Positions 31,833 to 59,579 of a DNA stretch of 64,000 bases are shown here, piece after piece. Made by a program: the position numbers and the translations under genes. Source of the stretch: a phage; sequence record PZ809289.1, one strand, 5' to 3'. The notes under the pieces were generated by a model. It saw nothing but the letters and a program-made list of their open reading frames with translations, had not been told where the DNA came from and ran no database searches. Position 1 is the first letter of the stretch; each line of letters begins with the position of its first letter.

Positions 31833-31861
31833 GTTTACAAGGTCTATAGGCATGATACTAT
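31833..31861 (+). promoter_or_regulatory. Early promoter cassette (GTTTAC, 17 bp, TACTAT)
   Basis: IR AGGTCTATAG/CTATAGACCT; conserved TACTATAGACCTATCAA. Confidence 0.6.
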
Positions 31862-31898
31862 AGACCTATCAAAACAAACTAACCAAACGGAAATCAAA

Positions 31899-32123
31899 AT
31901 GAAAACTTATCAAGAATTTATCACCGAAGCTAAAAGACATGAAGATGAACTGCCAATTGTTACAAAAACCTTTGATGGCACACTGGCCGATTTTAAAAAA
32001 GTCCCTAGTGATAAGCTTGCTAAATTGACTGGCTCTATCAATGAAAAAGGTGGCAAGGTCACGTTTTCTGCTGGCGGCATAGCCAATCTTAAAAAACTTT
32101 TGAAAGCCGCTGGCGCTGAATAA
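31899..32123 (+). CDS. Internal-protein-like, capsid-targeting leader MKTYQEFITE
   Basis: N-terminal MKTYQEFITEA matches the T4 internal-protein capsid targeting sequence; early promoter upstream. Confidence 0.6.
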   Translation: MKTYQEFITEAKRHEDELPIVTKTFDGTLADFKKVPSDKLAKLTGSINEKGGKVTFSAGGIANLKKLLKAAGAE

Positions 32124-32124
32124 A

Positions 32125-32397
32125 ATGAAATCATACCAAGAATTTATCGCTGAATCTATTCTTAATGAGGAAGTAAAAATTAACAAATCTGTTAAGACTA
32201 TGATTGATGATATAAATCATCTCTATAACATCGATTTGACTAATCACGTAACTTTAGGCAATAAGCGAAACTTTTTTGTTTTTGATACTTCAGAACTCGA
32301 CCAGAATCAAATTAACAATATTGAACGTTTTGCTAATGAAAAAGGGTTGCGTCACGAAACAGCTGGTTATAAAAAGTATGCAATTTATCTAAAATAA
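32125..32397 (+). CDS. Internal-protein-like, leader MKSYQEFIAE
   Basis: CTS-like N-terminus. Confidence 0.55.
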   Translation: MKSYQEFIAESILNEEVKINKSVKTMIDDINHLYNIDLTNHVTLGNKRNFFVFDTSELDQNQINNIERFANEKGLRHETAGYKKYAIYLK

Positions 32398-32399
32398 TT

Positions 32400-32428
32400 G
32401 TTTACAAGGTCTATAGGTGTGATACTAT
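32400..32428 (+). promoter_or_regulatory. Early promoter cassette
   Basis: Same architecture as 31833. Confidence 0.6.
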
Positions 32429-32464
32429 AGACCTATCAAAACAAATGAGTGATTGGAGAATAAA

Positions 32465-32650
32465 ATGAAACGTTGTGAATTAATTAGAAATGTTACTGCA
32501 CTGGTCGCCGTTACTGCTTTTGGCTTTAGTATGTTTGCAGGATTCATGCTCGATATGCTTTCAACTTCCGAGAATATAATCTCTTTAGTAGTGGCATTTT
32601 TAATTGGTTCAATCTCTTTTGTTATGGATAAAATCTCTAAAGGTGAATAA
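32465..32650 (+). CDS. Small membrane protein
   Basis: Two hydrophobic segments; ATG 32465 with conserved leader GGAGAATAAAATG. Confidence 0.45.
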   Translation: MKRCELIRNVTALVAVTAFGFSMFAGFMLDMLSTSENIISLVVAFLIGSISFVMDKISKGE

Positions 32651-33057
32651 TGAACGTTGAATATTATGTATATGCGGATTATGAAAATAACCCGTCTAAA
32701 GATGAAGATAACCGTTTAGGTGTAGATGCTTTTGAATCCCCTTCTGCAGCTTGGCAATGGGTTGAAAGTACTGATATCCCTTATCGTTATATTGAAGTGG
32801 TAGACCAAGCAGGAAACAAGTATCCTAAGGAAGCATATGTTCCTTCTGGTAAAGTAAATTTCCTTCTGTTCGCAGGTGACAACTATTACCCACGTGGCGG
32901 CTATACCGATTTAATCGCTAAAGCATTTTCTGAAGACGAACTACGTGATATTATTAACGAAAATGAGAAAAAGCCTCGTTACGGTTCTAATCGTTTTGAC
33001 TGTGACTGGTGGCAGATTGTTAATGCTAATACCCATACTATTGTAGACGAGGGTTAA
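32650..33057 (+). CDS. Hypothetical protein
   Basis: 135 aa ORF, start overlaps upstream stop. Confidence 0.5.
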   Translation: MNVEYYVYADYENNPSKDEDNRLGVDAFESPSAAWQWVESTDIPYRYIEVVDQAGNKYPKEAYVPSGKVNFLLFAGDNYYPRGGYTDLIAKAFSEDELRDIINENEKKPRYGSNRFDCDWWQIVNANTHTIVDEG

Positions 33058-33794: not shown

Positions 33795-33799
33795 TTTAA

Positions 33800-33870
33800 G
33801 GCCCTGTAGCTGGACGGTCGAGCGAGCGACTCATAATCGCTGGATGGTGGTTCGATTCCACCCAGGGCCA
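33800..33870 (+). tRNA. tRNA with CAU anticodon (Met/Ile2-type)
   Basis: Hand-folded cloverleaf: acceptor GGCCCTG/CAGGGCC, anticodon stem AGCGA/TCGCT with loop CTCATAA, T-arm GGTGG-TTCGATT-CCACC. Confidence 0.65.
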
Positions 33871-33911: not shown

Positions 33912-34577
33912 ATGTTCCATTACACTTATAAAATAACAAACAAAATTAATAATAAAATCTATATAGGTGTCCATTCAACCGAAAATTTGAATGATGCATA
34001 TTTTGGTTCCGGTAAACTCTTGAAAAGGGCCCAGGCCAAATACGGTATAGAAAATTTCTCTAAAGAAATATTAGAGTTCTTTGACGATAAAATCTCTATG
34101 TTTGAGTCAGAAAAGAATATTGTGACTGAAGAGTTTTTAAAGCGCCCCGATGTTTATAATTTGAAATTAGGCGGTGAAGGTGGTTGGGACCATTTAAACA
34201 CCGAAGAATATTTAGATAAAAAGAAAGAAGCTTCCTTAAAAGGAGTTGCTGCTTTTAAAACCAGATTTGAGAACGACCCAGACCTTAAAGAAAAATATCG
34301 TAAAATGGGTTCAGAAAGGTTTAAACAACTTTGGGATAATCCTAAGTATAGAGAGAAATTTTCAAATACTAAATCTTTCTTGGGTAAGACCCATTCAGAT
34401 GAAACCAAAAATAAAATTAAAGAATCTCACGCCAGAAATAAACACCAACAAGGTGAAAATAATTCCGGATATGGAAAAATGTGGATTCATTCTTTAGAAG
34501 AAAAAGTTTCTAAACGTATTAACAAAACGGATATTATTCCTGAAGGTTGGAATAAAGGCCGTAAAATAAAATTTTGA
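33912..34577 (+). CDS. segB: GIY-YIG homing endonuclease, segB-like
   Basis: 221 aa; GIY-YIG motif (KIYIGVHS...YFGSG); between two tRNA genes as T4 segB. Confidence 0.7.
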   Translation: MFHYTYKITNKINNKIYIGVHSTENLNDAYFGSGKLLKRAQAKYGIENFSKEILEFFDDKISMFESEKNIVTEEFLKRPDVYNLKLGGEGGWDHLNTEEYLDKKKEASLKGVAAFKTRFENDPDLKEKYRKMGSERFKQLWDNPKYREKFSNTKSFLGKTHSDETKNKIKESHARNKHQQGENNSGYGKMWIHSLEEKVSKRINKTDIIPEGWNKGRKIKF

Positions 34578-34582
34578 ATTAC

Positions 34583-34657
34583 GTCCCGCTGGTGTAATGG
34601 ATAGCATACGATCCTTCTAAGTTTGCGGTCCTGGTTCGATCCCAGGGCGGGATACCA
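34583..34657 (+). tRNA. tRNA-Arg (anticodon UCU)
   Basis: Acceptor GTCCCGC/GCGGGAT + A + CCA, T-arm CCTGG-TTCGATC-CCAGG, anticodon loop CTTCTAA. Confidence 0.7.
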
Positions 34658-35716: not shown

Positions 35717-35745
35717 GTTTACTCTTTCGTAGAACATGATACTAT
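35717..35745 (+). promoter_or_regulatory. Early promoter cassette
   Basis: GTTTAC, 17 bp, TACTATAGACCTATCAA. Confidence 0.55.
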
Positions 35746-35780
35746 AGACCTATCAAAACAACAGAGTGAAGGAGAGTAAA

Positions 35781-36044
35781 ATGGATAATTATGGTGAAGT
35801 GTTTAATTTCTTTATGAAATGCGTTCCTGAAGAATTTGGTGCTACTGTTAACGATATTAAAGTTATCGGCCCTGAACACCCGGTGTATGAAACCTATGCA
35901 GTAATGGGTAATGAAGATGGACAGTGGTATACAATTAAAGTTGTGATTAATATGTTCTCAGCTGAAGGTTACGCCAAATCGTCTACCAAAGTTTACCATG
36001 GTAATGATTTTGATGCAGAAAATTATTTCAATAATATGAAATAA
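35781..36044 (+). CDS. Hypothetical protein
   Basis: ATG 35781 after SD GGAGAG; early promoter upstream. Confidence 0.5.
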   Translation: MDNYGEVFNFFMKCVPEEFGATVNDIKVIGPEHPVYETYAVMGNEDGQWYTIKVVINMFSAEGYAKSSTKVYHGNDFDAENYFNNMK

Positions 36045-36047: not shown

Positions 36048-36076
36048 GTTTACATGGGCTCATGATTAAGATATTA
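36048..36076 (+). promoter_or_regulatory. Early promoter-like cassette
   Basis: GTTTAC, 17 bp, ATATTA; IR TGGGCTCAT/ATGAGCCCA. Confidence 0.4.
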
Positions 36077-36102
36077 TGAGCCCATAATTTGAGGAGAACA
36101 TA

Positions 36103-36501
36103 ATGAATATCGAAGATAAAGAAATGCAAGAGTTGTATAATTCATTAACACCTGAACAACAAAAATATGCCAAAGAACTAGAGAAAGCTCTTACTTTCAA
36201 CTTGGCAAAAACTGATTGGGCCGCTATGTATGAAGAAAAAACTAGATTAGAACTTGAAGCCGTCGAAAGAAATGAATGGATTGTCGAAACCAAGATTTCT
36301 GATGGTGGTTGCTCTGTTGAGGTGTCAGCTGTAGTTAAAGGTACTCATGGTGAAAAATCATGGGGCTGGCATAATGAAGCAAACAAACATATTGTTCTCT
36401 CAACGTCAAAAACTTATGGCCAAAGGGCTCCTGTATCCAAAGCTATTATTAAGCAAGCTCAATGGGAAGCCAATGAAATTTGCCTCGCAAAAATGAAATA
36501 A
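36103..36501 (+). CDS. Hypothetical protein
   Basis: 132 aa ORF; early promoter upstream. Confidence 0.5.
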   Translation: MNIEDKEMQELYNSLTPEQQKYAKELEKALTFNLAKTDWAAMYEEKTRLELEAVERNEWIVETKISDGGCSVEVSAVVKGTHGEKSWGWHNEANKHIVLSTSKTYGQRAPVSKAIIKQAQWEANEICLAKMK

Positions 36502-36504: not shown

Positions 36505-36534
36505 GTTTACAAACCTCAGAGGACAGGGTATAAT
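36505..36534 (+). promoter_or_regulatory. Early promoter cassette
   Basis: GTTTAC, 18 bp, TATAAT; IR GAGGACA/TGTCCTC. Confidence 0.5.
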
Positions 36535-36577
36535 GTCCTCATGGATTACAAAACGTTAACCAACTGAAGGAAATACT

Positions 36578-37171
36578 ATGAACACTTTAAAGAAAATCGT
36601 TGAATTCATCCGTTCTAAACTGGGTACTGCAATGGCTCAGAACCTGTCAATCGAAGACCAGTATACTAAAGCTGCTTCTACCCTGATTGATAAAATCACT
36701 GAACTCCAGACTGCTCATGTTAAGTCTGTGAATGAAGAAAAACGTATTCGTGCGTTGGCTAATGAAAAAGACCAACTGGCTGCTTCTAAAGAACGTGAAA
36801 TTCGTAAACTGATTGCCGAAGGCGCTGATGTCCAGGTACATGCTAAACTTGGCCTCCTTTATCGTCGTACAGCTACTCAGCTTCGTAAGAAAGCTGATGA
36901 TTATATCGAAATGCGTAATGAAATTAAACTGAAGGTTAAGGAACTTGATGACTCTCGTCAGGAACTGGCTGTTAAGCTCGAGTACATCCGTGAAACTCGT
37001 AATATGGCTGCCCTTGGTATTGCTACTGCCGATGATGTTGTTGAAATCGCTGCACTGACTAAGATTGATATTGAAGACACCCTACTGCGTGTAGAAACGT
37101 TTAAAGGCCCGCAAGTTGGAATGGATACGACTTCTGCCGATATCGACGACTACATTAATTCACTTAAGTAA
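36578..37171 (+). CDS. Coiled-coil protein (weak PspA/IM30-like pattern)
   Basis: 197 aa, charged heptad-rich sequence; similarity to PspA is impressionistic. Confidence 0.45.
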
Positions 37172-39762: not shown

Positions 39763-40002
39763 ATGTGGTATTACGCTCCGATGTCCGATAAGTCTAATGA
39801 ACCGGTACGCATTACTCGCGCCAAGTTTAAAAAGATTTATGGCTTCTCTTATAAGAAGTCTGATTACGGTGTTCGTTTTGAAGATGCCCACTGTATCAAT
39901 GACCCTTATGCTGAAGAAATCTCTAATGAGATAATTCCTATCATTAAGAATAATTCTGATGATATGTGGGAATTGCATAACGATTACGTCGCTGAAATTT
40001 AA
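39763..40002 (+). CDS. Hypothetical protein
   Basis: 79 aa ORF with SD. Confidence 0.45.
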   Translation: MWYYAPMSDKSNEPVRITRAKFKKIYGFSYKKSDYGVRFEDAHCINDPYAEEISNEIIPIIKNNSDDMWELHNDYVAEI

Positions 40003-40021
40003 GTTTACTGAGGAAAATATT

Positions 40022-40981
40022 ATGATGTTAGTTATTGGTTCTCGTGCACTGCACCACGCTGGTCTGATTGAAAGTAAGCATATCGAAAATTCTGATTGGG
40101 ATTTCATTGCCGACCAAGGCTCATGGAATCACTTTAAAGCACGTATGTTCGGCGCCCATGTACACGTTGACAATCCTGATGTCCAGGCTTTCAAATGTAT
40201 GCATAATGGTAAAGAAACCTATTTTGAAGCTTATATCGTTCGTGCTCTGACTAACGTACGAGAAATTACCGGTGAGCTTCAAGACGAAGATTTCACTTCA
40301 AGCTATCGTCTCCTGAAATATGCTGAAAATCATATTAAAAAGGACCGTCTTACTGGTTTCTATTGGGCCACCCCTGATATCTGTCTGGCTATCAAAACCT
40401 CTCATCGTTTCCTTAAGAATAATCCGTTCTTCTTGAAAACCATGTCCCACATCAAATACCTTCGTAATAAAGGTATCACCCTTAACGAAGAACTCCAGGA
40501 AATTATGTTGCAACGTCAAAAAGAAACGTTGAGCTATTCCCACCCTAAATTGGATGTAAACAAATCATCGTTCTTTAATGATACCATTTATACGCTGGAC
40601 CATGACTCTATTCATGAAGCAGTGGCATTGGCAGGGCGCCCTGCATATACCTTTTATATGAAGGAAGGTTCTGAAGTCATGACCTCTCGTGAGAAGTTCG
40701 AGGCTTTGCCTGAAGCTATTAAACTGGCTGGTGTATATGAAGAAACTTGTGTCCTGGCACTAGAACGTTCACAGGTTCCTAATGACTTCAATATTTCACC
40801 ATCATTAAGTTTTTATATGGCTCTTGAGAAAGTGTGTACCTCAATCACTTCAGGTTGGTTCCGCGAGTACGCCTGGGAAAACTACCAAGCTGTAGTGAAT
40901 ATGTATAAGACTTTAGGTGAAAACGACTACATTGAACGGTTTAAGCGTAACCAACATTTAATTCGTCCTTTCGAAAAATAA
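40022..40981 (+). CDS. Hypothetical protein with possible N-terminal nucleotidyltransferase-like motif
   Basis: ATG 40022 after SD GAGGAAAA; N-terminus VIGS...SDWDF loosely resembles GS...DxD; weak. Confidence 0.5.
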   Translation: MMLVIGSRALHHAGLIESKHIENSDWDFIADQGSWNHFKARMFGAHVHVDNPDVQAFKCMHNGKETYFEAYIVRALTNVREITGELQDEDFTSSYRLLKYAENHIKKDRLTGFYWATPDICLAIKTSHRFLKNNPFFLKTMSHIKYLRNKGITLNEELQEIMLQRQKETLSYSHPKLDVNKSSFFNDTIYTLDHDSIHEAVALAGRPAYTFYMKEGSEVMTSREKFEALPEAIKLAGVYEETCVLALERSQVPNDFNISPSLSFYMALEKVCTSITSGWFREYAWENYQAVVNMYKTLGENDYIERFKRNQHLIRPFEK

Positions 40982-40993
40982 TTGCACAAAACA

Positions 40994-41022
40994 GTGTACA
41001 AGGTCTATAGGTGTGATACTAT
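40994..41022 (+). promoter_or_regulatory. Early promoter cassette (-35 variant GTGTAC)
   Basis: Same body as 31833 and 32400. Confidence 0.5.
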
Positions 41023-41059
41023 AGACCTATCAAAACAACAGAGTGAAATGGAGAATAAA

Positions 41060-41272
41060 ATGAAACTTTCTAACCAAGCAATCAACATGTTAAACGAAGT
41101 TCGTGCAGCTGGTGCTAAATGCCTGATGGTTAACACTCGTGACGGTGACCTTCGTCAAGCATTTGGTGAATTGAAATCTGCTGACCTGGTTAAATGTTCA
41201 GTTGGTATTGGTAACGCACTTCGTGTATCCTTATCTCCTAAAGGTAAAATGTACTTTTTCAACAAAAAGTAA
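41060..41272 (+). CDS. Small hypothetical protein
   Basis: ATG 41060 after conserved leader GGAGAATAAAATG; early promoter upstream. Confidence 0.45.
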   Translation: MKLSNQAINMLNEVRAAGAKCLMVNTRDGDLRQAFGELKSADLVKCSVGIGNALRVSLSPKGKMYFFNKK

Positions 41273-41286
41273 GTGAGGAAAATATT

Positions 41287-41973
41287 ATGAACGGTCCGAA
41301 AACTTTTAATTCTAAAGCTCGTGCAGTAGGTGGTTTTGCAGGTCATATTTCTAATGATGATATTAAAAACGAGCCTATGTTCTTTAACTGTGATTTGAAT
41401 TTTGCTGCACAAAATGGTGGTCCTATTACTCGTAGCTTTATTACTAATCTCCCTGATGAGTGGAAAGCCGTTGAATGCGTATTTGATTCCCGTGTACACA
41501 TGTTAATGCCCGGCTGGTACCCTGCAATTCCAGGCTTCCACCATGATGATGTACCCCGTCCGGATATTCCGGTTGGTCAACACTTTATTACCGCAGGGCA
41601 ACCTGATTATGATAATCCTCGATACCATTCTGAACATATTCTTGGTCTTGTTAACGCTGATGTGTGTCCTACTCATTTTGCAACCGGAACTGCCCAGTTC
41701 AGTCAGATTCCTGAAGGCGAACTTATCTATCGCCAGTGGCATAAAGAAGTTCTGGAAAAAATTGAGTCTAATGAATTAACTAAGTGGGATGCTCCTGACC
41801 GCACGTTGCTCCAGTTTGATTGGCAGACATGGCATACAGGTTCTCGTGCAGTAAGTAACGGTTGGCGCTGGTTTGGTCGTGTGTCTCGTAATACAGACCG
41901 TGTTAAAAAGATTACAAATGAAATCCGCGTTAATGCTCAAGTATATCTGGAATTTCCTATGGAGGGCTGGTAA
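41287..41973 (+). CDS. Hypothetical protein
   Basis: 228 aa ORF. Confidence 0.5.
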   Translation: MNGPKTFNSKARAVGGFAGHISNDDIKNEPMFFNCDLNFAAQNGGPITRSFITNLPDEWKAVECVFDSRVHMLMPGWYPAIPGFHHDDVPRPDIPVGQHFITAGQPDYDNPRYHSEHILGLVNADVCPTHFATGTAQFSQIPEGELIYRQWHKEVLEKIESNELTKWDAPDRTLLQFDWQTWHTGSRAVSNGWRWFGRVSRNTDRVKKITNEIRVNAQVYLEFPMEGW

Positions 41974-42566
41974 TGGCCCTTTATGAACCTGGATGTATGG
42001 GTATTGATACAAACTTCATCCGTCGGTCGGAAAATGCCGGAATTATTATCCCAAGTGGTGAACATATGATTATTAAAAAGTCCTGGCGAAATATCGATGA
42101 CGGTGATGAAGGAATTTCAGCCAGTACAATAGATTGGTCAGGTTGTACTGCCGAAATGAAACAGCTTTTAATTGAGGAGTTCAGAATGGGTTATATCGTA
42201 AATGGTTGGCAACCGGTAAAGAAAATCACCCGCACTGACGATAAGTATATTTGTCTCCAAGATGGAAAGGCTAAGCTCATTGATACTGAATGGCTTACGT
42301 TCGGACGATATGTTGTAGCGTATTTTATTACTTTACTTCCAATGATAGTGTTGAGTTCATTTTTAATCGACGCCAATTGGAATGATGCGCTAGAACGAAC
42401 TATTATTGGTGCGGGATTAATGAACCTTTTCACCGCTGGAGCTGCTTTAAGTATTTGGTGCTTGGCTATTGAAATGCCATGGCGTTTACGTCGTCAACAA
42501 CGTCTTTACGACGAAGGTAAAAACAAACATAATTTAAATGAGTTTATTAAGGAATGCCGTAAATGA
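41973..42566 (+). CDS. Membrane protein with C-terminal ...FIKECRK tail
   Basis: 197 aa; C-terminal TM segments and same tail motif as 37749..38102. Confidence 0.5.
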   Translation: MALYEPGCMGIDTNFIRRSENAGIIIPSGEHMIIKKSWRNIDDGDEGISASTIDWSGCTAEMKQLLIEEFRMGYIVNGWQPVKKITRTDDKYICLQDGKAKLIDTEWLTFGRYVVAYFITLLPMIVLSSFLIDANWNDALERTIIGAGLMNLFTAGAALSIWCLAIEMPWRLRRQQRLYDEGKNKHNLNEFIKECRK

Positions 42567-42799
42567 GTATTGCAATTTATATTAAATCTGAGTCATGTGA
42601 TTCTTATCTGTATTCCTATGATACCGGAACGTCAGAAGAGAAAATCAAAGAAGATTTAGAAAGCGACTTGGGTATGTTCTGTCCTATTGGTGACTATATG
42701 CTTCAAGTGTCTGATAGTGAAAGTCCATCATCAGAAAATAGACTTCAAATTATTATGCAAGATATTTTTAAACAATCATGGGAACGAGACGATGAGTAA
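42563..42799 (+). CDS. Small acidic hypothetical protein
   Basis: 78 aa ORF; start overlaps upstream stop. Confidence 0.45.
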   Translation: MSIAIYIKSESCDSYLYSYDTGTSEEKIKEDLESDLGMFCPIGDYMLQVSDSESPSSENRLQIIMQDIFKQSWERDDE

Positions 42800-43241
42800 G
42801 AAAGCTAAGGAATTATCGGCAGGTATTTTGTTCATGACCGTTGATAAAGAACTGGTCATGGGTCGTGTAACAGGCTCTCGTAATCCAGAGAACATGCGTC
42901 ATAAATGGGACATTCCTAAAGGCCATGTCGAACCAGGCGAAGAGCCTATTCAAGCGGCAATGCGCGAAACCGAAGAAGAGATTGGATTCACAGCATACGA
43001 TCCTGCATTCCTGAAAGACCTAGGTGAGTTCAAATATTCAAGCAATAAGAATCTACATCTGTTCTTATATACGGTGCCTGTGGAACACGAGCAGTTCAAG
43101 GATTGCAAATGTACGGCTTACCATACGTTCCCTGATGGTCGTACTATTCCTGAATTCGATGCTTTTGCCTTGATTAAACGTCCGCAATGGGAATATGTCA
43201 TGGGCCCGTCGATGTTTAAGGTTTTAGATTCGCTCTTTTGA
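42792..43241 (+). CDS. nudE: Nudix hydrolase NudE (e.1-like)
   Basis: Nudix box GHVEPGEEPIQAAMRETEEEIG; immediately upstream of e as in T4; start ATG 42792. Confidence 0.8.
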   Translation: MSKKAKELSAGILFMTVDKELVMGRVTGSRNPENMRHKWDIPKGHVEPGEEPIQAAMRETEEEIGFTAYDPAFLKDLGEFKYSSNKNLHLFLYTVPVEHEQFKDCKCTAYHTFPDGRTIPEFDAFALIKRPQWEYVMGPSMFKVLDSLF

Positions 43242-43269
43242 TATAAATACCTCCTATACTCAGGAGGTA
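43242..43269 (+). promoter_or_regulatory. Late promoter TATAAATA plus SD-sequestering hairpin upstream of e
   Basis: tataaata followed by inverted repeat CCTCCT...AGGAGG containing the SD. Confidence 0.65.
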
Positions 43270-43271
43270 TT

Positions 43272-43766
43272 ATGGATATTTTTGATATGTTACGCCTTGA
43301 TGAAGGCTGTAAATTAGACTTATATAAGGATACTGAGGGATACTATACTATTGGTATTGGCCAATTGATTACTAAGAATCCTTCTAAAGATGTTGCTCGG
43401 GCTGAACTTGATAAGCTTATGGGCCGGGTTTGTAACGGACGTATTACTATGGCTGAAGCCGAACAACTTTTTAACAGGTCGGTTGAAAATGCTCGTAGAG
43501 CTATTCTGCGTAATCCTAAATTGAAACCTGTTTATGATGTACTGGACGAAGTTCGTCGTTGTGCTTTAATTAACATGGTATTCCAAATGGGTGAAGCAGG
43601 TGTAGCTGGGTTCACTAACTCTTTACGTATGCTCCAACAGAAACGTTGGAATGATGCGGCAGTTAACCTGGCTCAATCCCGTTGGTATAAACAAACCCCT
43701 AATCGTGCTAAGCGCGTGATTTCTACATTTAAAACAGGTACTTGGAAAGCATATGAAAACTTATAA
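43272..43766 (+). CDS. e: Endolysin (T4 lysozyme E)
   Basis: 164 aa; [32 protein letters not shown]...[22 protein letters not shown] matches T4 lysozyme. Confidence 0.95.
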
Positions 43767-44151
43767 TGAATTTATCGCAGAGAATGTAATTCCTGCATCT
43801 AAAGAACTTTTGGCAATGTTCGAATCTGAAGAGTTCACTGAAGAACTGAATGAGAATCTGACCCAGGCCACTCCTCAGGTTATTCGCGTTCGTAATGCCC
43901 TTCAGACAGGCATGCAGGCTCGCGTCTCTAAGACTATGAAGCTGGCCTTCACCACTTCTAAAAATGAAGACTACGGTGATGGTATTGCAATGAACACTGG
44001 ACAGTATTATGTTGAGTGGAATGGCGAAACCGGTACTGCTAAGATTCGCCAAACCAGAGCAGCGGGTGGTAAAATGTTGGACATTAAACTGAACGTTAAA
44101 GAGAAAGACGTCGCGGCTTTGTTCAAGAATTGGATGAAGACCTATAAATAA
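43753..44151 (+). CDS. Internal-protein-like, leader [10 protein letters not shown]
   Basis: CTS-like N-terminus; adjacent to e where T4 carries ipIII/ipII. Confidence 0.6.
44143..44150 (+). promoter_or_regulatory. Late promoter TATAAATA upstream of ipIII-like gene
   Basis: tataaata adjacent to early promoter. Confidence 0.45.
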
Positions 44152-44180
44152 GTTTACATCTCCTAGAATTGTGATAGTAT
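44152..44180 (+). promoter_or_regulatory. Early promoter cassette
   Basis: GTTTAC, 17 bp, TAGTAT. Confidence 0.45.
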
Positions 44181-44233
44181 ATCTACAGTTACTTGAACAG
44201 ACCAATTAAAATATTTTCCTTTAAGGAACCCGT

Positions 44234-44830: not shown

Positions 44831-44854
44831 TAAAGCCGATACTTGATAAAAGTT

Positions 44855-44905
44855 GTTTACATCTCCTGTAGTCATGATACTATAGACCTATCAACTACAG
44901 GAGAT
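44855..44905 (+). promoter_or_regulatory. Early promoter cassette with flanking IR, upstream of denV
   Basis: Arms ATCTCCTGTAG/CTACAGGAGAT; second arm contains SD. Confidence 0.6.
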
Positions 44906-44910
44906 TAAAA

Positions 44911-45318: not shown

Positions 45319-45361
45319 TTAAATCCGTGATAGAATACTTCTATCAACTTAAGGAATAACA

Positions 45362-46125: not shown

Positions 46126-46133
46126 GGCTTAAT

Positions 46134-46391: not shown

Positions 46392-46507
46392 TTAGCATTT
46401 TAAATGGGAGCAACCTGGACCTCACAATTCTGTGAGGGACTCCCGCCAACCTGTAATAAGGTCGAGCCCAAGTGCGGTAATGGGTAAATGCAGAAAGGGA
46501 CGAATTA

Positions 46508-47068: not shown

Positions 47069-47361
47069 TGACCGATGAAGAACTTTTTGAGTTCTGTTAT
47101 TTCTCACGTAAGGTCCGAAGAGAGGACCTTACTGCAAATTTCGAATATGCTTATTTCTACCCACTAGAATACGTGTTCATGACAGGGCCCTTTAAGGGCT
47201 CTCGTTTTAGATGTCATGCTCCTAGTATCCGATTAATGAAACAGGTTCCTTACTTCACTCTCGAGTTCATCTCAGGGCCTTGTAAGGGTATTATTACTCG
47301 TAGTCTCTTGACTTATGACCAAGAGATTCATATGATTTCTGACTGGAAAAAATATGTCTAA
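47065..47361 (+). CDS. Hypothetical protein with internal repeat
   Basis: Repeat LEYVFMTGPFKG / LEFISGPCKG; ATG 47065. Confidence 0.45.
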   Translation: MMTDEELFEFCYFSRKVRREDLTANFEYAYFYPLEYVFMTGPFKGSRFRCHAPSIRLMKQVPYFTLEFISGPCKGIITRSLLTYDQEIHMISDWKKYV

Positions 47362-47572
47362 ATTGACAATTGAAGGCTCTGATGAAGCTCTGAAGATGTT
47401 TGTTGACTGGTTCCATGAACAAGGCGAGCATGGCTTTATGGAATGTTGGGATGGCGGACAATGGAATGGTAAAGAAACCGTTTATCCTAGCACATATATC
47501 TCTGTTCGTGGTGGATATGATGGGATTCATTTAGTTGAATATGATATTGCATCTGATGAGGAAGTGAAATGA
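47354..47572 (+). CDS. Hypothetical protein
   Basis: 72 aa ORF. Confidence 0.45.
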   Translation: MSKLTIEGSDEALKMFVDWFHEQGEHGFMECWDGGQWNGKETVYPSTYISVRGGYDGIHLVEYDIASDEEVK

Positions 47573-47847
47573 TTGAAGATATCAAGGGTTATAAACCGCA
47601 TACCGACGATAAAATCGGTAAAGTGAATGCTATCAAAGATGCTGAAGTTCGTCTTGGGTTAATGTTTAAAGCTCTAGAAGAAGAACATGTTACCTATTAT
47701 ATGAACTTAGATACCGAAGAGGTTTCTGAACAAGAACTAGACCAGGCTCATGAACGCATTACCCAGATTCGTAATGCAATTGACCGTCTTAAAGAAGCTA
47801 GTATGTGGGCTTGTCGCTCTGTGTTCCAACCAGAAGAAAAGTACTAA
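47569..47847 (+). CDS. Hypothetical protein
   Basis: 92 aa ORF. Confidence 0.45.
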   Translation: MIEDIKGYKPHTDDKIGKVNAIKDAEVRLGLMFKALEEEHVTYYMNLDTEEVSEQELDQAHERITQIRNAIDRLKEASMWACRSVFQPEEKY

Positions 47848-47851
47848 AGCA

Positions 47852-47902
47852 GTTTACATCTCCTGTAGGTATGATACTATAAACCTATCAACTACAGGAG
47901 AT
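47852..47902 (+). promoter_or_regulatory. Early promoter cassette with flanking IR
   Basis: Near-identical to denV cassette. Confidence 0.6.
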
Positions 47903-47909
47903 TACAAAA

Positions 47910-48367
47910 TGTCAGAAATTAATTCAGAAGTATTCATCCGCCGCAACAAATTACGTCGTCAGTTCGAAACCGAATTCCGTGAACTGAATGCGTCCATCAA
48001 AAAAGCCGCCATTAAGAGCGGAGTCCCAGCCTTCTTTATTAAGTACTCTAATCACTTGTTGGACCGTGCTATCCAACGTGAAATCGACGAAAAATACGTT
48101 TTTGCTTTATTCAAGCAACTCCATAACCATGTTAAAGAAATTCATGAATTTTTAATCCAGGAACCTCTACCTGATGTAGAATCCGAAATTGTCCCTGGTA
48201 AAGTGTATCGTCCATTGCGTCTCGAAATTACCGATAAAACCTTATGGCTAGGTATGACAGTAGACCGTAAACATCCTGATAAAGGATACTCATTAAAATG
48301 TCGTATGGCATTTGTTAACTCTAAACGTTTAGAAGGTAAAACCAGCACGAAAGTAATCTATCTTTAA
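47910..48367 (+). CDS. Hypothetical protein
   Basis: ATG 47910 (MSEINSEVF...) downstream of early promoter. Confidence 0.5.
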
Positions 48368-50115: not shown

Positions 50116-50853
50116 ATGGCAAAGGAATTCCATTATAATTACTTGACTGTAATAAAAACCCATAAGGCAAATTATTACTATGTAGGTAAACACTCCACTG
50201 ATAATCTTTCAGACGGGTATTATGGAAGTGGTACGGTAGTTAAAAATATTTGTAAAAAGCATCCTTATAAAACTCGTATATTAGAATTCTTCGAATCTGA
50301 AGAAGAGGCGTATGCCGCCGAAATTCCTTTAGTTGAAAAGGCTAAATTAAAATATGGTAAGCATTCTTTAAATTTTGCTGATGGCGGAAGAGGTAAAAAG
50401 AAAGGAACCAAATTATCTAATTTAACTAAACAGAAAATGTCTAGGTCTAGAAAAGGAGTTAAATGGAGCAAAGCCAGAATAGAAGCTTCTAAATTCACCA
50501 CTTCTAATAAAGGTTTAAACCATTATTCCAATAGAATAGGATTTAGTGATGAGCATAAAGCTAAAATAGGATTAGCCTCTAAAAAATTAAAAGGATTTAA
50601 ACATAGCGCTGAAACCATAGAAAATATGAGTAACGCCAAAAAGGGCAAAAAGAATCCCATGTACGGTAAAAAGGGCGCTATGGCAGGAAAACCTTCTCCT
50701 ATAAGAAACGAATCTTGGAAATTTTACGATGAATTAAAACTCTTATGGGAAGAATCCAATAAGCCTTCAGCATATATGTTTAAAAAGATAGCTATAAGCA
50801 AAGGTTATCCTAATTGCTCTTATAGAGGAGTTGTATTTAAATGGCAAGCTTGA
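50116..50853 (+). CDS. GIY-YIG homing endonuclease (seg-like)
   Basis: 245 aa; YYVGKHS...YYGSG GIY-YIG motif; Lys-rich C-terminal region; 3' end overlaps tk start. Confidence 0.75.
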   Translation: MAKEFHYNYLTVIKTHKANYYYVGKHSTDNLSDGYYGSGTVVKNICKKHPYKTRILEFFESEEEAYAAEIPLVEKAKLKYGKHSLNFADGGRGKKKGTKLSNLTKQKMSRSRKGVKWSKARIEASKFTTSNKGLNHYSNRIGFSDEHKAKIGLASKKLKGFKHSAETIENMSNAKKGKKNPMYGKKGAMAGKPSPIRNESWKFYDELKLLWEESNKPSAYMFKKIAISKGYPNCSYRGVVFKWQA

Positions 50854-52455: not shown

Positions 52456-52460
52456 TCAAA

Positions 52461-52486
52461 GGTCTCACTTCGGTGGGACCTTTTTT
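52461..52486 (+). terminator. Rho-independent terminator
   Basis: GGTCTCAC-TTCG-GTGGGACC + T6. Confidence 0.6.
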
Positions 52487-52495: not shown

Positions 52496-52524
52496 GTTTA
52501 CATCCTCTAGGAACATGATACTAT
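52496..52524 (+). promoter_or_regulatory. Early promoter cassette
   Basis: GTTTAC, 17 bp, TACTATAGACCTATCAA. Confidence 0.55.
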
Positions 52525-52552
52525 AGACCTATCAACTAATGAGGAGAACAGT

Positions 52553-52789
52553 ATGAAACTTACAAGTACTACGGTTTCATTAGAATATGAAATCAACGGT
52601 CGTATCCTTGAGATTAAGATATTCGACGACCGAAGTATCTTCGCTGATTATCGAGGATACAGAATTCGTCTAGAAAAGGACGAGCTCAAGGAACCGTGGC
52701 TCCTTAAAGACACATTAAAGGGTTGTGGATGTAAACTGAATACTACTCAAGCCCAAGAATTAATTTCTACTATCAACAAATACTGGTGA
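52553..52789 (+). CDS. Hypothetical protein
   Basis: 78 aa; early promoter upstream. Confidence 0.45.
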   Translation: MKLTSTTVSLEYEINGRILEIKIFDDRSIFADYRGYRIRLEKDELKEPWLLKDTLKGCGCKLNTTQAQELISTINKYW

Positions 52790-55343: not shown

Positions 55344-55532
55344 ATGAAGGTCTTTTTATCATATGGAAGACCCCATAAAACCCGACGTTGGTATCTTGAA
55401 GCTGTCTGTAAAGAAACCGGACGTCGAGTCAATATCAAGTACGTGTGCAAACCTACGCCTAAACAGACAAGACAATTTGTTAACTGGGCTATAAATGATA
55501 TACGCTTCCATAATTTTTGGAGCGCAATTTAG
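55344..55532 (+). CDS. Small basic protein
   Basis: 62 aa from ATG 55344; followed by terminator. Confidence 0.4.
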   Translation: MKVFLSYGRPHKTRRWYLEAVCKETGRRVNIKYVCKPTPKQTRQFVNWAINDIRFHNFWSAI

Positions 55533-55553
55533 GAACCTTCGGGTTCCTTTTTT
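55532..55553 (+). terminator. Rho-independent terminator
   Basis: GGAACC-TTCG-GGTTCC + T6. Confidence 0.6.
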
Positions 55554-55573: not shown

Positions 55574-55602
55574 GTTTACACCTTCGTAGAGCATGTTATT
55601 AT
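55574..55602 (+). promoter_or_regulatory. Early promoter cassette
   Basis: GTTTAC, 17 bp, TATTAT. Confidence 0.5.
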
Positions 55603-55639
55603 GGACCTATCAAATCTACTGAGTGAAATGGAGAATATA

Positions 55640-56620
55640 ATGTTAACTATCAAAATCAACAAAGGTATCTATCGCGGTAATGTAATCTCCGGTACGTTCA
55701 TGAGTTCAGGTAAAACCTGGTTCCCTAATAAAATTCATGAATCCGAAGCTCACCTCGGTGATGGTAAGGTATTTGTACAGATTGATGGTGTTGAACGTGG
55801 TGTATGGGTGTTCAAATGTGACGTTGAAATGGAAGGTGCTGAAGCTCCTGCAGTTGTTACTGAATCCGCTGAAGAAATGAAACATCGCATTAACAAACGT
55901 TTTAAAGTAATGAACATGATGACTAGTGGAATCATCGATGGTAAAATTCGTTCCCTTATCATCTCTGGTGCCGCAGGTATTGGTAAAACATATTCTTTGG
56001 ATAAAGCATTACAGAATGCCCACGAAAATGAAACTATCGAATATAAATCAATCAACGGAAAGATTAGTGGAATCGGTCTTTACGAGCAGCTTTGGAATAA
56101 CCGCGGCCCTAATAGTGTTCTTCTTATTGATGATGTTGATGTATTCTCTGATATGGATATCCTGAACCTGTTAAAAGCAGCATTGGATACTGGTGAAAAA
56201 CGTAAGGTGTGCTGGAGCACTTCAAGTTCTTATCTTGATGATAAAAATATCGATAAAGAATTTGAGTATGAAGGCACCATCGTGTTCATCACCAACGTTG
56301 ATATTGACCGTGAATTAGAGCGTGGAACTAAACTTGCTCCACACCTCCAGGCTTTAGTATCTCGTTCAGTTTACTTAGACCTCGGAGTTCACTCTAACGA
56401 AGAGATTATGGTTCGTGTTGAAGACGTTATCCTGTCCACTGATATGATGCAAAACCGTGGTCTGACTGATGCCGAGACTTACCAAGCTTTAGCATGGATG
56501 AAGGCTAATGTATCTCGTCTTCGTAACGTATCATTACGTACAGCTCTTTATCTGGCGGACTTCATTGCCACCGATAAAAATGACTGGAGCGAAATCGCTG
56601 AAGTTACACTTCTGAAATAA
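55640..56620 (+). CDS. AAA+ family ATPase
   Basis: Walker A GAAGIGKTY, Walker B VLLIDDVD; ATG 55640 after conserved leader. Confidence 0.6.
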   Translation: MLTIKINKGIYRGNVISGTFMSSGKTWFPNKIHESEAHLGDGKVFVQIDGVERGVWVFKCDVEMEGAEAPAVVTESAEEMKHRINKRFKVMNMMTSGIIDGKIRSLIISGAAGIGKTYSLDKALQNAHENETIEYKSINGKISGIGLYEQLWNNRGPNSVLLIDDVDVFSDMDILNLLKAALDTGEKRKVCWSTSSSYLDDKNIDKEFEYEGTIVFITNVDIDRELERGTKLAPHLQALVSRSVYLDLGVHSNEEIMVRVEDVILSTDMMQNRGLTDAETYQALAWMKANVSRLRNVSLRTALYLADFIATDKNDWSEIAEVTLLK

Positions 56621-56971: not shown

Positions 56972-56973
56972 TT

Positions 56974-57024
56974 GTTTACATCTCCAGTAGAAATGATACT
57001 ATAGACCTATCAACTACTGGAGGT
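56974..57024 (+). promoter_or_regulatory. Early promoter cassette with flanking IR
   Basis: Arms ATCTCCAGTAG/CTACTGGAGGT, compensatory relative to denV cassette. Confidence 0.6.
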
Positions 57025-57028
57025 TAAC

Positions 57029-57553
57029 ATGAACGCTAAAGATATTTTTTCACTCATCAATTATAACAATGGTAATTTCAAATCCGAAAAACAAAGCAAG
57101 TTCTTTAACGACGTTGCTTGTGGTAATGAGATTACTGTATCTGGAGGAGAGATTTACAAAAGCCGTTGGAACTGGATTGTTGTCATCGATTCAGTTGGTA
57201 TTGTAGAGCTCTATAAAAACACTAACAAAAAACGTACTCTTCACTGGAGTCGTGAAACCAATCAAGCTTATCAAGCTGAACGTAACAAACGTTTAATGCC
57301 TACCGAATCTGACCTGGCAAACGTTAAATCTGATATCGCTTATTTCGATAATCTGATTGCTGAACAACAAGCAGTTATTGATAAGTTTGACGAAATCAAA
57401 GCTTGTAAAGAGATTCCTGAATTTATGCGGGAATCAGTAAACGAACAGTACGCCCTCACTTCAGGTCGTATCGAGCAGTACAAATCACAACGAGCTGAAC
57501 GCCAAGCTCTGCTTCATAAATTTGAAGAGCGTTTAAAGACGGTTCTCGCATAA
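57029..57553 (+). CDS. Hypothetical protein
   Basis: 174 aa; early promoter upstream. Confidence 0.5.
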   Translation: MNAKDIFSLINYNNGNFKSEKQSKFFNDVACGNEITVSGGEIYKSRWNWIVVIDSVGIVELYKNTNKKRTLHWSRETNQAYQAERNKRLMPTESDLANVKSDIAYFDNLIAEQQAVIDKFDEIKACKEIPEFMRESVNEQYALTSGRIEQYKSQRAERQALLHKFEERLKTVLA

Positions 57554-57570
57554 ACGCTTTATACCAAGGA

Positions 57571-57600
57571 TGGTATAATGGTTCTAGGTTCTTAATTACT
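57571..57600 (+). promoter_or_regulatory. Extended -10 promoter-like element (TGGTATAAT)
   Basis: Near-identical copy at 4849-4880. Confidence 0.4.
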
Positions 57601-57616
57601 TACTGAGGAAATTATT

Positions 57617-58459
57617 ATGTCACAGGCAATTAATCAAATTCGTTCTGAAGTTAAAAAAGTTATTAAATTTGGTCGTATTCCACTGAATAAAGAAGTGGTT
57701 GAAAAGGTTTTGGCCATGATGTGGGAAAAGTTTGAAGTTTGTATTTCTGTAGATGAATTCACTAAAATATTTGACAAGACTAAAGGTTTGTTTACGTTAG
57801 AAGACCGAGTCATGAAATCTCTTCACAGGGCCGGTATGTTGACTCGTGCTAACGCCAGAATTATTCTTAGAAATTATAACAAAGGCTATGACCTCTATGG
57901 TCGTTTAATTCCAGCGATGTCATTTGATGAAGTTGTTAAAGACCTTCGTACTAACCAACGTCGTTTACTAGCACTGGGTGCTCGCCTTGCAAAAGGTCAA
58001 GATAAGCAAATGCCATTTAAGACTAATGGTTCAGGCGATTGGATTATCTTTAATATTGTCAACCAACCAGGTAACGAAAACGAGTATCTTACTTCAACTT
58101 TTAGTGGTTGTCAATATGACAACTGGAAATTCCATCTTCGATTGGCTTTGTCCGAACTCGAACGTAGTGGTATTCTTACCTTCGATAATGTTAATACCAG
58201 TACAGGCTGGCGTATTAAACTTGTTAAGCCAGGTAATGATGTTAAGAGTCATTCAGAAGCTCCTAAACCGGAACCTGTACCAGTGCGCAGCAATGAGAAG
58301 CACCAAGCTCAAATCGAGTATTTTAGCAATTTGCTTACTTGTCTTAATGTTACAATTCAACAACAAGATGATGAGATTTTCCGACTCTCTGGTCTGAATG
58401 CTAAAGCCAAGGCTGAACGTCAAAAATATATCGATATCCTAAATCTTCTTAAGGATTAA
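57617..58459 (+). CDS. Hypothetical protein
   Basis: 280 aa ORF. Confidence 0.5.
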   Translation: MSQAINQIRSEVKKVIKFGRIPLNKEVVEKVLAMMWEKFEVCISVDEFTKIFDKTKGLFTLEDRVMKSLHRAGMLTRANARIILRNYNKGYDLYGRLIPAMSFDEVVKDLRTNQRRLLALGARLAKGQDKQMPFKTNGSGDWIIFNIVNQPGNENEYLTSTFSGCQYDNWKFHLRLALSELERSGILTFDNVNTSTGWRIKLVKPGNDVKSHSEAPKPEPVPVRSNEKHQAQIEYFSNLLTCLNVTIQQQDDEIFRLSGLNAKAKAERQKYIDILNLLKD

Positions 58460-58461
58460 TT

Positions 58462-58677
58462 ATGGAAATTATTGGTTTTATTCTTGCTTATCTTGTGATA
58501 GGATTTATTACTGCTTTGATTGCGCATAAAACAGGCGCGTGGAACCCGGTTAAAATTGAATCAAGCTATGATGCGGTATTCATTACATTTGTATGGCCAG
58601 TATTTTGCTTTGCCTGGTTATGTATGCTAATTCTGTGGCCTATCGCTAAACTCTATGAAAAATTATTTGGACTCTGA
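58462..58677 (+). CDS. Small membrane protein
   Basis: 71 aa, two hydrophobic helices. Confidence 0.45.
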   Translation: MEIIGFILAYLVIGFITALIAHKTGAWNPVKIESSYDAVFITFVWPVFCFAWLCMLILWPIAKLYEKLFGL

Positions 58678-59548
58678 TATGAACATTAAAACACGTAAAG
58701 AATATTCCATCTATGACCATGACACGACTCGTCGTATCGCTATCGATCGGCTGGCAGACTTTGGCCATATTTGTAATGGTAATTATACTTATGGTGTAGG
58801 TCGTAAAGGGACTTATATTAGTTCTTTGAACGATTATTGCCGTTGCCCTGCTCATTTATTTGGTGCAACACTGCGAGCTAATATCAAAGACCTCTTGGCT
58901 ACCGCAGGACGTATTTCTACGGTTCCTGTCAATATCAAGAATATTAATTTTACGGCTCGTAACCTAGTCATTAATATTCTGCCTGACGGTATTCAAGTTC
59001 GTTTCCGTCCTACCTCAAAAGGTAATAAGGCCCTTCGTGAAGCATTCGAAACCTTATTCAGAGAGGCAATGACCCGTATTAAGGCAGTAGAATCATATAA
59101 AGTTACAACCGATGAATATGCTGATTGTTTTGAGCGGGCTGATGCAGTGTATTTTAATGTTAAACTAACTCGTGAATATCTTTTGTCTTATGCCCCTTAT
59201 CAATCCCAACAAAAGGACCCACAAATGGAACGTCGTATCTCTACCGCATCATATGGGCCCGTAGGCCAGTATGCAGCCTATGACAAATTCAAAACCACTG
59301 CTGTACCAAGCCCATTCAATTCCGAACCGTATCATTGGAAAATTAAACCCGAGAATTCTTTGGTGGTTACTAACCCTACGATGAAACCTATCGAGAAGTA
59401 TCATGAGGACCACCTCCAGGAATCAATCCACCGTTTAAACGGTCAGATCGAAGATGAGAAAAAGAGTATCCAAGACGTATTGATTCGCATCAAGAACATG
59501 GAACTCCAGCGTGACAAGCTCCGCGCGGCAGTATTAGCTCTAAAATAA
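58655..59548 (+). CDS. Hypothetical protein
   Basis: ORF-track coordinates; alternative start ATG 58679; coiled-coil C-terminus. Confidence 0.5.
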   Translation: MKNYLDSDMNIKTRKEYSIYDHDTTRRIAIDRLADFGHICNGNYTYGVGRKGTYISSLNDYCRCPAHLFGATLRANIKDLLATAGRISTVPVNIKNINFTARNLVINILPDGIQVRFRPTSKGNKALREAFETLFREAMTRIKAVESYKVTTDEYADCFERADAVYFNVKLTREYLLSYAPYQSQQKDPQMERRISTASYGPVGQYAAYDKFKTTAVPSPFNSEPYHWKIKPENSLVVTNPTMKPIEKYHEDHLQESIHRLNGQIEDEKKSIQDVLIRIKNMELQRDKLRAAVLALK

Positions 59549-59549
59549 T

Positions 59550-59579
59550 GTTTACATCCAAGGATGGATGGAGTATAAT
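59550..59579 (+). promoter_or_regulatory. Early promoter cassette
   Basis: GTTTAC, 18 bp, TATAAT; palindrome CATCCAAGGATGGATG in spacer. Confidence 0.5.

Follow-up and report, generated by a model that had tools for sequence, protein, structure and literature searches.

The 64,000-nt window analyzed here (sequence record PZ809289.1) is, judged by its sequence, a T4-type phage of the genus Dhakavirus (JS98/WG01-like). This study concerns the early-promoter cassettes dispersed between positions 31833 and 59579, some of which enclose the promoter in an RNA hairpin predicted to mask the Shine-Dalgarno (SD) sequence of the gene that follows. Over positions 40000-48000, identity is 96% to Escherichia phage WG01 and 91% to JS10, and the gene order over 30-64 kb agrees with the JS10, WG01, and T4 annotations. 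The order is 1, 57A, 57B, the tRNA region, e.8-e.6, nudE, e, ipIII, denV, the vs genes, and regB, followed by vs, tk, rI.-1, the mobD genes, and nrdC.11 to nrdC.1. The plus strand of the window corresponds to the direction of early transcription in T4, and the 30-64 kb stretch is the classical hyperplastic early region. A search of positions 30000-64000 against Rfam returned two tRNAs only, with no cassette match above the gathering score; a known Rfam family was therefore rejected as the identity of the cassettes.

The exact motif GTTTAC-N17-TACTAT occurs seven times in the window, always on the plus strand (31833, 32400, 35717, 44855, 47852, 52496, and 56974), compared with 0.01 copies expected by chance. 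Together with the shuffle tests described below, this count led us to reject a chance origin. Three plus-strand copies with one mismatch (40994, 44152, and 55574) bring the total to ten, and three plus-strand promoters of the type GTTTAC-N18-TATTAT/TATAAT lie at 36048, 36505, and 59550. The interval thus holds 13 early-type promoters, although an earlier, sequence-only reading had ascribed at least 13 copies to the 17-bp motif itself. That reading had also reported a conserved sequence behind the promoters. The element AGACCTATCAA, with at most one mismatch, has 11 matches in the window versus 1.4 expected and directly follows the -10 hexamer in nine of the 13 promoters, but is absent at 36048, 36505, 44152, and 59550.

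The promoter copies share an A/T-rich upstream flank and an ATG with an SD 55-85 nt downstream, all on the plus strand, and a TG precedes the -10 in the AGACCTATCAA-type copies. The GTTTAC hexamer, the 17-18 bp spacing, the TGn-extended TAnnnT -10, and the A/T-rich UP region are the features of early sigma-70 promoters. The repeats are sigma-70-type early promoters of this Dhakavirus phage, built into cassettes of ~60-70 bp of the PeSL (promoter-early stem-loop) type. Each cassette is sequentially composed of an AT-rich upstream region, GTTTAC, the TGn-extended -10, a conserved initial transcribed sequence, the SD, and the ATG. By homology to T4, the promoters are predicted to be active immediately after infection and to produce 5' ends 7 nt past the -10.

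Each promoter was folded twice, as read-through RNA and as its own transcript, with +1 set 7 nt past the -10, a spacing that agrees with the T4 promoter logos (conserved T at -7). The main measure is the energy required to open the SD of each sequence, which was tested by shuffles with both promoter hexamers fixed and by cross-pairing. RNAalifold, applied to MAFFT alignments of upstream regions, yielded 11 pairs, three of them compensated, for one set and no structure for the other. Because sequence alignment misplaces arms that differ in sequence and position, it was replaced by the SD-opening energies. Across 74 plus-strand genes in this half of the window, the SD-opening cost has a median of 3.8 and a 90th percentile of 9.6 kcal/mol.

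Gene e, encoding lysozyme, provides an internal positive control, as its late promoter lies within an SD-sequestering hairpin (43242-43274, plus strand). The late promoter TATAAATA occupies 43242-43249, the arms TACCTCC (43248-43254) and GGAGGTA (43263-43269) enclose the loop, and the ATG of the 164-codon gene is at 43272. The motif is found exactly where it had been placed before (43242-43269). The SD-opening cost of this experimentally established hairpin, on the same scale as the cassettes, is 12.9 kcal/mol.

On folding, the cassettes sort into three kinds: SD-gated, -10-straddling, and without a strong hairpin. The z-score of the minimum free energy (MFE), relative to hexamer-preserving shuffles, is -2 or lower in 9 of the 14 window cassettes. 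Over 33 promoters from the window and T4, it averages -3.2 and is -3 or lower in 17. SD sequestration is limited to the cassettes of denV (44855), regB (47852), and nrdC.8 (56974), plus one at 63541 that lies outside 31833-59579. In these four, 13.8-18.9 kcal/mol is needed to open the SD of the read-through RNA, as against 1.7-2.6 kcal/mol for the own-promoter RNA. They are thus at least as occluding as the known case of gene e. The spacer pairs with the SD over 11-14 bp, and the predicted +1 falls between the arms, placing the 3' arm at about +5 to +17. As in gene e, the SD resides in a stable helix in read-through RNA and the predicted start excludes the 5' arm. Among the 74 genes, denV and nrdC.8 rank first and second in SD-opening cost and the 63541 cassette fifth; regB is missing from the ranking because the gene caller picked an upstream start. 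The terminator scan found none upstream of the gated cassettes, which makes read-through into them plausible.

The three gated cassettes within 31833-59579 form read-through hairpins of -18 to -20 kcal/mol, and an inner TGATA/TATCA helix is also predicted in each. Their 3' arms hold GGAG 5-9 nt 5' of the ATG, consistent with the previous assignment of the SD to the downstream arm. In the denV cassette (44855-44913, plus strand), the -35 occupies 44855-44860, the 5' arm ATCTCCTGTAG 44861-44871, the -10 44878-44883, AGACCTATCAA 44884-44894, and the SD-holding 3' arm CTACAGGAGAT 44895-44905, with the ATG at 44911. The hairpin has an energy of -19.7 kcal/mol, and SD opening costs 18.9 kcal/mol in read-through RNA versus 2.6 kcal/mol in the own transcript. 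The regB cassette (47852-47911, plus strand) has the same arms as denV at 47858-47868 and 47892-47902, flanking a -10 at 47875-47880, with the ATG at 47909; its costs are 13.8 and 1.7 kcal/mol, respectively. In the nrdC.8 cassette (56974-57031, plus strand; ATG at 57029), the arms are ATCTCCAGTAG (56980-56990) and CTACTGGAGGT (57014-57024), and the costs are 17.3 and 2.0 kcal/mol. Relative to the denV and regB arms, they carry a paired T-A to A-U change, confirming the reported covariant substitution, plus one U.G wobble. The fourth cassette (63541-63601, plus strand) has the promoter ATTTAC-N17-TATAGT and arms TCTCCTCACGTGTT (63551-63564) and AACACATGAGGAGA (63580-63593) with one C.A mismatch in the stem, and precedes a 60-aa open reading frame (ORF) with its ATG at 63599. 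Its SD-opening cost is 14.5 kcal/mol and its MFE z-score is -7.1.

The inverted repeats that the sequence-only reading had located at 44861-44905, 47858-47902, and 56980-57024 are exact in position. The SD sequestration that it had proposed, with the SD left free in own-promoter transcripts, is reproduced in silico at these three named cassettes, but does not extend to the family as a whole.

The denV gene itself is a mosaic. Within 44860-45320, the cassette and the initial ~100 nt share 93-100% identity with T4 and JS98-type phages. Over 45008-45260, identity to these phages is 37-60%, and a different lineage (L078-80) matches at up to 93%. At its 3' end, the gene returns to a JS98-like sequence.

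The upstream regions of denV and regB were taken from T4-like contigs for comparison. For denV, the SD is sequestered in read-through RNA in all 24 distinct upstream regions, with costs of 8.6-20.2 kcal/mol and a median of 12.5, as opposed to a median of 2.3 in the own transcripts. The arms are unrelated in sequence across lineages and include TTCCTCCAAG/CTTGGAGGAA, ATCTCCGTTTG/CAAACGGAGAT, AGTGTTCTC/GAGAACACT, AGTAGTCT/AGACTACT, and ATGTCCTCCT/AGGAGGACAT, as well as GATGTCTTCC/GGAGGACATC with a U.G pair. The 5' arm adopts one of two placements, either in the spacer or over the -10 end and the six bases before +1, and both are 5' of the predicted start. Shuffling the promoter outside the hexamers reached the observed cost in 12 of 3000 trials. 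True promoter-leader pairs average 13.1 kcal/mol, a value reached in none of 10000 permutations, compared with 6.8 when cross-paired. The stems contain 29 G.U pairs versus 6 A.C mismatches, the G.U count being inflated because MFE folding extends helices with G.U and not with A.C; the excess points to pairing in sense-strand RNA and not in DNA.

Covariation across cassette copies, the check proposed in the sequence-only reading, was examined on a broader set. Scanning IMG/VR with the cassette core gave 57 loci from related phages, which together with the other collected loci and the window comprise 62 distinct combinations of 5' and 3' arms in a fixed register. The number of pairs is distributed bimodally, with 10-11 of 11 in ten combinations and at most seven in the remainder. 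Six arm pairs are perfectly complementary, namely ATCTCCTGTAG/CTACAGGAGAT, ATCTCCAGTAG/CTACTGGAGGT, ATCTCCATTAG/CTAATGGAGAT, TTCTCCAGTAG/CTACTGGAGAA, TTCTCCTCTAG/CTAGAGGAGAA, and TTCTCCTCATG/CATGAGGAGAA. The covariation score over all 62 combinations, unpaired types included, is 0.231 versus 0.166 in shuffles, with 0 of 500 shuffles as high and slid registers lower, although such shuffle statistics overstate independence because the cassettes are related by recombination. Both the compensated arm variants and the conservation seen at denV in 24 lineages speak for selection on pairing.

In the 70 kb of T4 that were surveyed (1-50 kb and 56-76 kb), 25 early promoter-gene pairs were predicted, four of which are strongly gated. 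Their SD-opening costs in read-through and own RNA are 17.6 and 2.5 kcal/mol for regB, 15.0 and 1.7 for modB, 11.5 and 0.3 for motB.2, and 11.2 and 2.6 for denV. The T4 denV cassette is almost identical to that of the window. The SD hairpin of T4 regB, TTTTCCTCTTGACTG/CAGTTAAGAGGAGAA, contains two G.U pairs and is unrelated in sequence to the regB arms of the window. The predicted early promoters within SD-sequestering hairpins at modB, which encodes an ADP-ribosyltransferase, and motB.2 are located at ~13130 and ~8161 of the T4 record (L159). Many other T4 promoters, e.g., those of dmd, mobD.2, ipI, ipII, and e.7, have -10-straddling hairpins.

We favor, with moderate confidence, an interpretation in which the spacer of a gated early promoter doubles as the 5' arm of an SD-locking RNA hairpin, such that the gene would be translated only from its own promoter. 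On the folding model, denV (a DNA-repair enzyme), regB (an RNase), and two other genes are probably translated in this way. An RNA polymerase arriving from upstream would transcribe both arms, and the thermodynamics predict that an 11-14 bp helix then locks the SD and leaves the read-through RNA untranslated. A polymerase starting at the cassette's own promoter would begin between the arms, as the T4 +1 rule implies, and produce a 20-22 nt unstructured leader with a free SD. The earlier observation is largely right, and its mechanism is well supported in silico for a defined subset of cassettes.

In T4, early promoters shut down 2-3 min into infection, and read-through RNA is therefore expected at later times. 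It would continue to be made by extension of early transcripts and from upstream middle promoters. T4 has the middle promoters PipIII and Pvs.7 on the 5' side of denV and regB. A scan of the window for MotA boxes, which mark middle promoters, was uninformative, with three matches compared with ~1 expected. The gated enzymes would then be made in a short immediate-early burst, the reverse of the outcome at gene e. A second expected outcome is expression independent of the upstream context, which would suit modules shuffled between genomes.

To the inflated G.U count and the recombinational linkage of the cassettes, several further points must be added that weigh against this interpretation. Only 3 of the 13 cassettes in 31833-59579 are gated; five have hairpins off the SD and five lack a strong hairpin. 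In the nrdC.8 cassette of another genus (L164-166), the hairpin straddles the -10 and the SD is free, costing 1.2-1.4 kcal/mol to open. The regB lineages L065-67 likewise contain only a -10-straddling hairpin, with the SD free; in lineages L068 and L076-77, a weaker SD helix is nested around such a hairpin, with a cost of 4.5-6.4 kcal/mol. Because the hairpin types swap at nrdC.8 and regB, the SD arm is not always the conserved element, and the hairpin across the -10 may be the conserved unit, with a secondary role for the SD. The JS10/JS98-type nrdC.8 cassette carries an uncompensated G-to-T change (ATT opposite ACT), although SD opening still costs 11.1 kcal/mol. Finally, the helix might be opened in vivo by protein S1 or by ribosomes that complete translation of the upstream gene.

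The sequence-only reading had overlooked the -10-straddling repeats of five cassettes and the weak or missing repeats of five more. In the -10-straddling kind, the spacer pairs with the -10 end and the +1 region, and SD opening in read-through RNA costs 1.2-5.4 kcal/mol. Three plus-strand cassettes share the repeat AGGTCTATAG/CTATAGACCT, which pairs the spacer with the -10/+1 region instead of the SD. These are the cassette at 31833-31901 (arms 31840-31849 and 31858-31867; z = -7.3), in which the SD lies outside the stem and costs 1.7 kcal/mol to open in read-through RNA and 1.5 in the own transcript, the trna.4 cassette at 32400-32467 (arms 32407-32416 and 32425-32434), and a cassette with a GTGTAC -35 at 40994-41062 (arms 41001-41010 and 41019-41028; z = -3.7). 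Two N18 promoters on the plus strand have further repeats of this kind. The promoter at the T4 e.7 position (36048-36105; z = -5.8) contains ATGGGCTCAT (36054-36063) and ATGAGCCCAT (36076-36085), and its T4 e.7 equivalent, ATAGGCTnAT/ATGAGCCTAT, is a version with an A-U to G-C compensated change. The e.6 promoter (TATAAT; 36505-36580; z = -2.3) has a short hairpin of GAGGAC (36519-36524) and GTCCTC (36535-36540).

The remaining five cassettes, all on the plus strand, have weak hairpins or none, with MFE z-scores from -1.2 to +1.1. The e.8 cassette (35717-35783; z = -0.8) follows a GGGCC-T run that looks like a terminator, a T-run hairpin near 35690. This cassette has a spacer matching the one at 55574 (CTTTCGTAGA) and a leader matching the one at 40994 (AAAACAACAGAGTGAA); it is apparently recombinant, which would explain its lack of complementary arms. 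The ipIII cassette (44152-44236; TAGTAT -10; z = -0.1) lacks AGACCTATCAA, as does the N18 promoter of nrdC.4 (59550-59608; TATAAT; z = -1.2). The cassette at 52496-52555 (z = -1.1) has a mere 5-bp SD pairing, TCCTC/GAGGA, with SD-opening costs of 2.9 and 1.5 kcal/mol, and lies directly 3' of an intrinsic terminator (52458-52483). The nrdC.10 cassette (55574-55642; TATTAT -10; z = +1.1) is located directly 3' of another one (55531-55548).

The strongest rival explanation, which we nevertheless regard as unlikely, treats all of these hairpins as PeSL stem-loops that attenuate or terminate upstream transcription or protect upstream mRNA 3' ends, with SD overlap being incidental to short leaders. 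Arbiol et al. described stem-loops lying between -35 and -10 or overlapping the -10, one of which cut lacZ expression like rrnB T1 (PMC2839356), and strong hairpins off the SD are present in five window cassettes and at many T4 promoters. The two hairpin types are interchangeable at one locus, nrdC.8 or regB, which keeps this read-through-attenuator explanation alive. The distribution of terminators is also in line with it: none of the three cassettes just 3' of a canonical terminator (35717, 52496, and 55574) has a strong hairpin, versus 8 of the 10 cassettes in 31833-59579 that have no such terminator. Yet the terminator scan, which found 52458-52483 and 55531-55548, called none of the cassette repeats, and no T-run follows any cassette hairpin; an intrinsic terminator was rejected as the identity of these hairpins. 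Moreover, in each of the 24 denV lineages the SD stays within the 3' arm while the 5' arm changes position, a pattern that fits selection on SD occlusion and not on the mere presence of a hairpin. A helix of -18 kcal/mol that holds the SD must in any case lower initiation.

Alternatively, the repeats might act in DNA, as cruciform or hairpin substrates of recombination, as short homologies for shuffling, or as a palindromic site for a regulator protein. The arms flank the -10 in an operator-like manner, cassette edges lie at points where the genome departs from WG01 and JS10 by indels, replacements, or permutations, and the junctions of PeSL mini-circles fall between -10 and SD. A DNA role is nonetheless highly unlikely. 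G.U pairs, which form on the sense strand only, exceed A.C mismatches about 5 to 1, the 3' arm is tied to the SD, and recombination needs only the shared promoter homology and not the repeat. The arms also differ completely between cassettes and lineages, and a common protein operator was rejected because their sequences are unrelated.

Also very doubtful, in our view, is the proposal that the hairpin hides the GGAG of the SD from the endoribonuclease RegB on long transcripts, or tunes RegB autoregulation, with ribosome blocking not being its purpose. GGAG is present in every 3' arm, regB itself is gated, and the T4 denV SD is RegB-resistant in vivo (Durand et al.). However, Durand et al. ascribe this resistance to the sequence lying 3' of GGAG, and grafting an A-rich tail made it cleavable in vivo; the denV RNA is treated as unstructured in the RegB work because a short transcript was used. 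A helix that hides GGAG from RegB would also hide it from ribosomes, and protection would therefore preserve a silent message. 

Least plausible of all is the absence of any selected function, with complementarity arising from cassette duplication or gene conversion and from templated mutation of quasi-palindromes, which can produce paired changes without selection: templated correction of quasi-palindromes is known in T4, and the cassettes are homogenized and mosaic (35717, for instance, combines the 55574 spacer with the 40994 leader), but the denV arms are unrelated in 24 lineages with two 5'-arm placements, the pairing of arm combinations is bimodal, and intact pairs dominate although complementarity would be expected to be lost when cassettes recombine, as in JS10 nrdC.8.

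The edges of the cassettes coincide with breakpoints of indels, replacements, and permutations relative to WG01 and JS10, supporting the resemblance to PeSL elements claimed in the sequence-only reading. The breakpoints are at 31813-31819, 32391-32395, 32455, 35787, 36092, 44151-44164, 44844-44855, and 55558. WG01 has an extra ORF at 31813-31819 and an extra Ip7 gene between 32395 and 32455, and 55558 is the end of a replacement relative to the same phage. The breakpoints at 35787 and 36092 flank an e.8-like gene (35781-36044) that is lost in JS10. Those at 44151-44164 and 44844-44855 delimit a permutation of two modules relative to JS10, with junctions at the 44152 and 44855 cassettes. JS10 (L001 15348-16477) reverses the order of the two modules within 43751-44855, one holding a 132-aa ORF (43753-44151) and the other ipIII (44234-44830).

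Several other features of the window and of related phages deserve description. A 221-aa GIY-YIG/NUMOD3 homing endonuclease similar to T4 SegB is encoded at 33912-34577, between tRNA genes at 33800-33870 and 34583-34654, and is missing in WG01. CATAAATA precedes its start and SD opening costs 10.6 kcal/mol; this gene may be another case of a promoter within a hairpin. Just 5' of tk, a clean insertion of 725 bp relative to WG01 and JS10 corresponds to a 245-aa ORF with a NUMOD3 motif (50116-50853), probably also a homing endonuclease. In the late-gene half of the window, the minus strand carries an early-type promoter, GTTTAC-N18-TATAAT, at ~5540-5603, directly followed by the perfect hairpin GCGCGTAT-ACACA-ATACGCGC. 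At the denV loci of 345-380 kb phage contigs (L104-L107), a terminator-like hairpin containing the -35 (GGTTGACttcgGTCAGCCCttttt) is located ~40-70 nt before the ATG and is followed by TATAAT. These hairpins resemble the PeSL of KVP40/nt-1 type, which represent another way to join terminator and promoter.

If SD gating operates as proposed, it would provide a built-in timer: synthesis of the gated proteins would be limited to the immediate-early burst and would cease automatically once early promoters shut down, despite continued transcription from upstream. According to reviews, it is not fully understood how early protein synthesis declines and early promoters are shut off, and regB is tightly regulated and in need of such regulation. 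Promoter-gene modules would also become independent of their genomic context, which would help them through PeSL-mediated shuffling. That the two hairpin types replace each other at one locus suggests that both may serve to shield a module from expression started upstream; -10-straddling hairpins, like upstream terminators, could, speculatively, achieve at the transcript level what SD locking would achieve in translation, and would then be alternative insulators to the same end. With slightly less than even odds, a general cis rule would hold for T4-type phages, in which early modules translate only self-started RNA and the early promoter is placed in an SD-locking hairpin for a set of putatively dosage-sensitive enzymes (DenV, RegB, ModB, MotB.2, and NrdC.8). 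With SD gating, stem-loops so far read only as terminators would acquire a second, translational meaning, and the architecture would offer a compact design for context-independent expression cassettes in synthetic use. As regB, denV, modB, and motB.2 of T4 share this architecture, existing T4 genetics and assays are applicable; T4 denV mRNA has been analyzed by primer extension. Even if gating fails, about half of T4-type early promoters carry non-random hairpins.

Our literature search, which did not extend to older subscription papers, found no description of an early-promoter spacer pairing with the SD and nothing relevant on differential RNA sequencing or ribosome profiling of T4 or on a denV hairpin. 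Reviews of early promoters mention merely 'additional regions of consensus', and those of SD-sequestering hairpins with an internal promoter name only e, soc, 49, and I-TevI, plus mobE and segB (PMC3014915). 

Three known systems are closely related to the gated cassettes. RegB/S1 control (PMC1702504, PMC3014915) also targets the GGAG of early-gene SDs with the aim of ending early protein synthesis, and regB is itself gated. RegB cleaves its targets in trans and structure prevents this, whereas the cassette hairpin would occlude in cis and only read-through RNA. The PeSL elements consist of an early promoter, an AT-rich region, and a stem-loop in one of five positions, all 5' of the transcription start; the stem-loops have been read as terminators or attenuators and tied to indels and mini-circles (Arbiol et al. 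2010, PMC2839356; Comeau et al. 2014, PMC4122927). In JS98, PeSL-like sequences are mentioned only near g43 (PMC2839356, PMC4122927). The window cassettes share with PeSL a strong sigma-70-like early promoter, an AT-rich upstream region, an embedded stem-loop, and an SD and ATG on the 3' side. Both are dispersed in the hyperplastic region before small, often unknown genes, with edges at indels and permutations, and the five -10-straddling hairpins of the window fit the published subclass 'overlapping the -10'. However, published stem-loops are wholly 5' of the transcription start and no SD arm has been described for them, whereas the helix of the gated subset spans the predicted start and has the SD as its 3' arm. 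The window hairpins, moreover, are not followed by a T-run.

The other relative is the gating of T4 genes e, soc, 49, and I-TevI (PMC3014915), in which long transcripts hold both arms and hide the SD while RNAs begun at the internal promoter, being without the 5' arm, are translated. There, the internal promoters are late (gp55, TATAAATA) or late/middle and delay expression. The gated cassettes instead use immediate-early sigma-70 promoters of the type GTTTAC/TGnTAnnnT, TATAAATA being found only at gene e (43242), and the predicted effect is the opposite, confining expression to the first minutes of infection. The SD-gated cassettes are thus best filed as joining two known kinds of element, the PeSL cassette and the gene-e-type gate.

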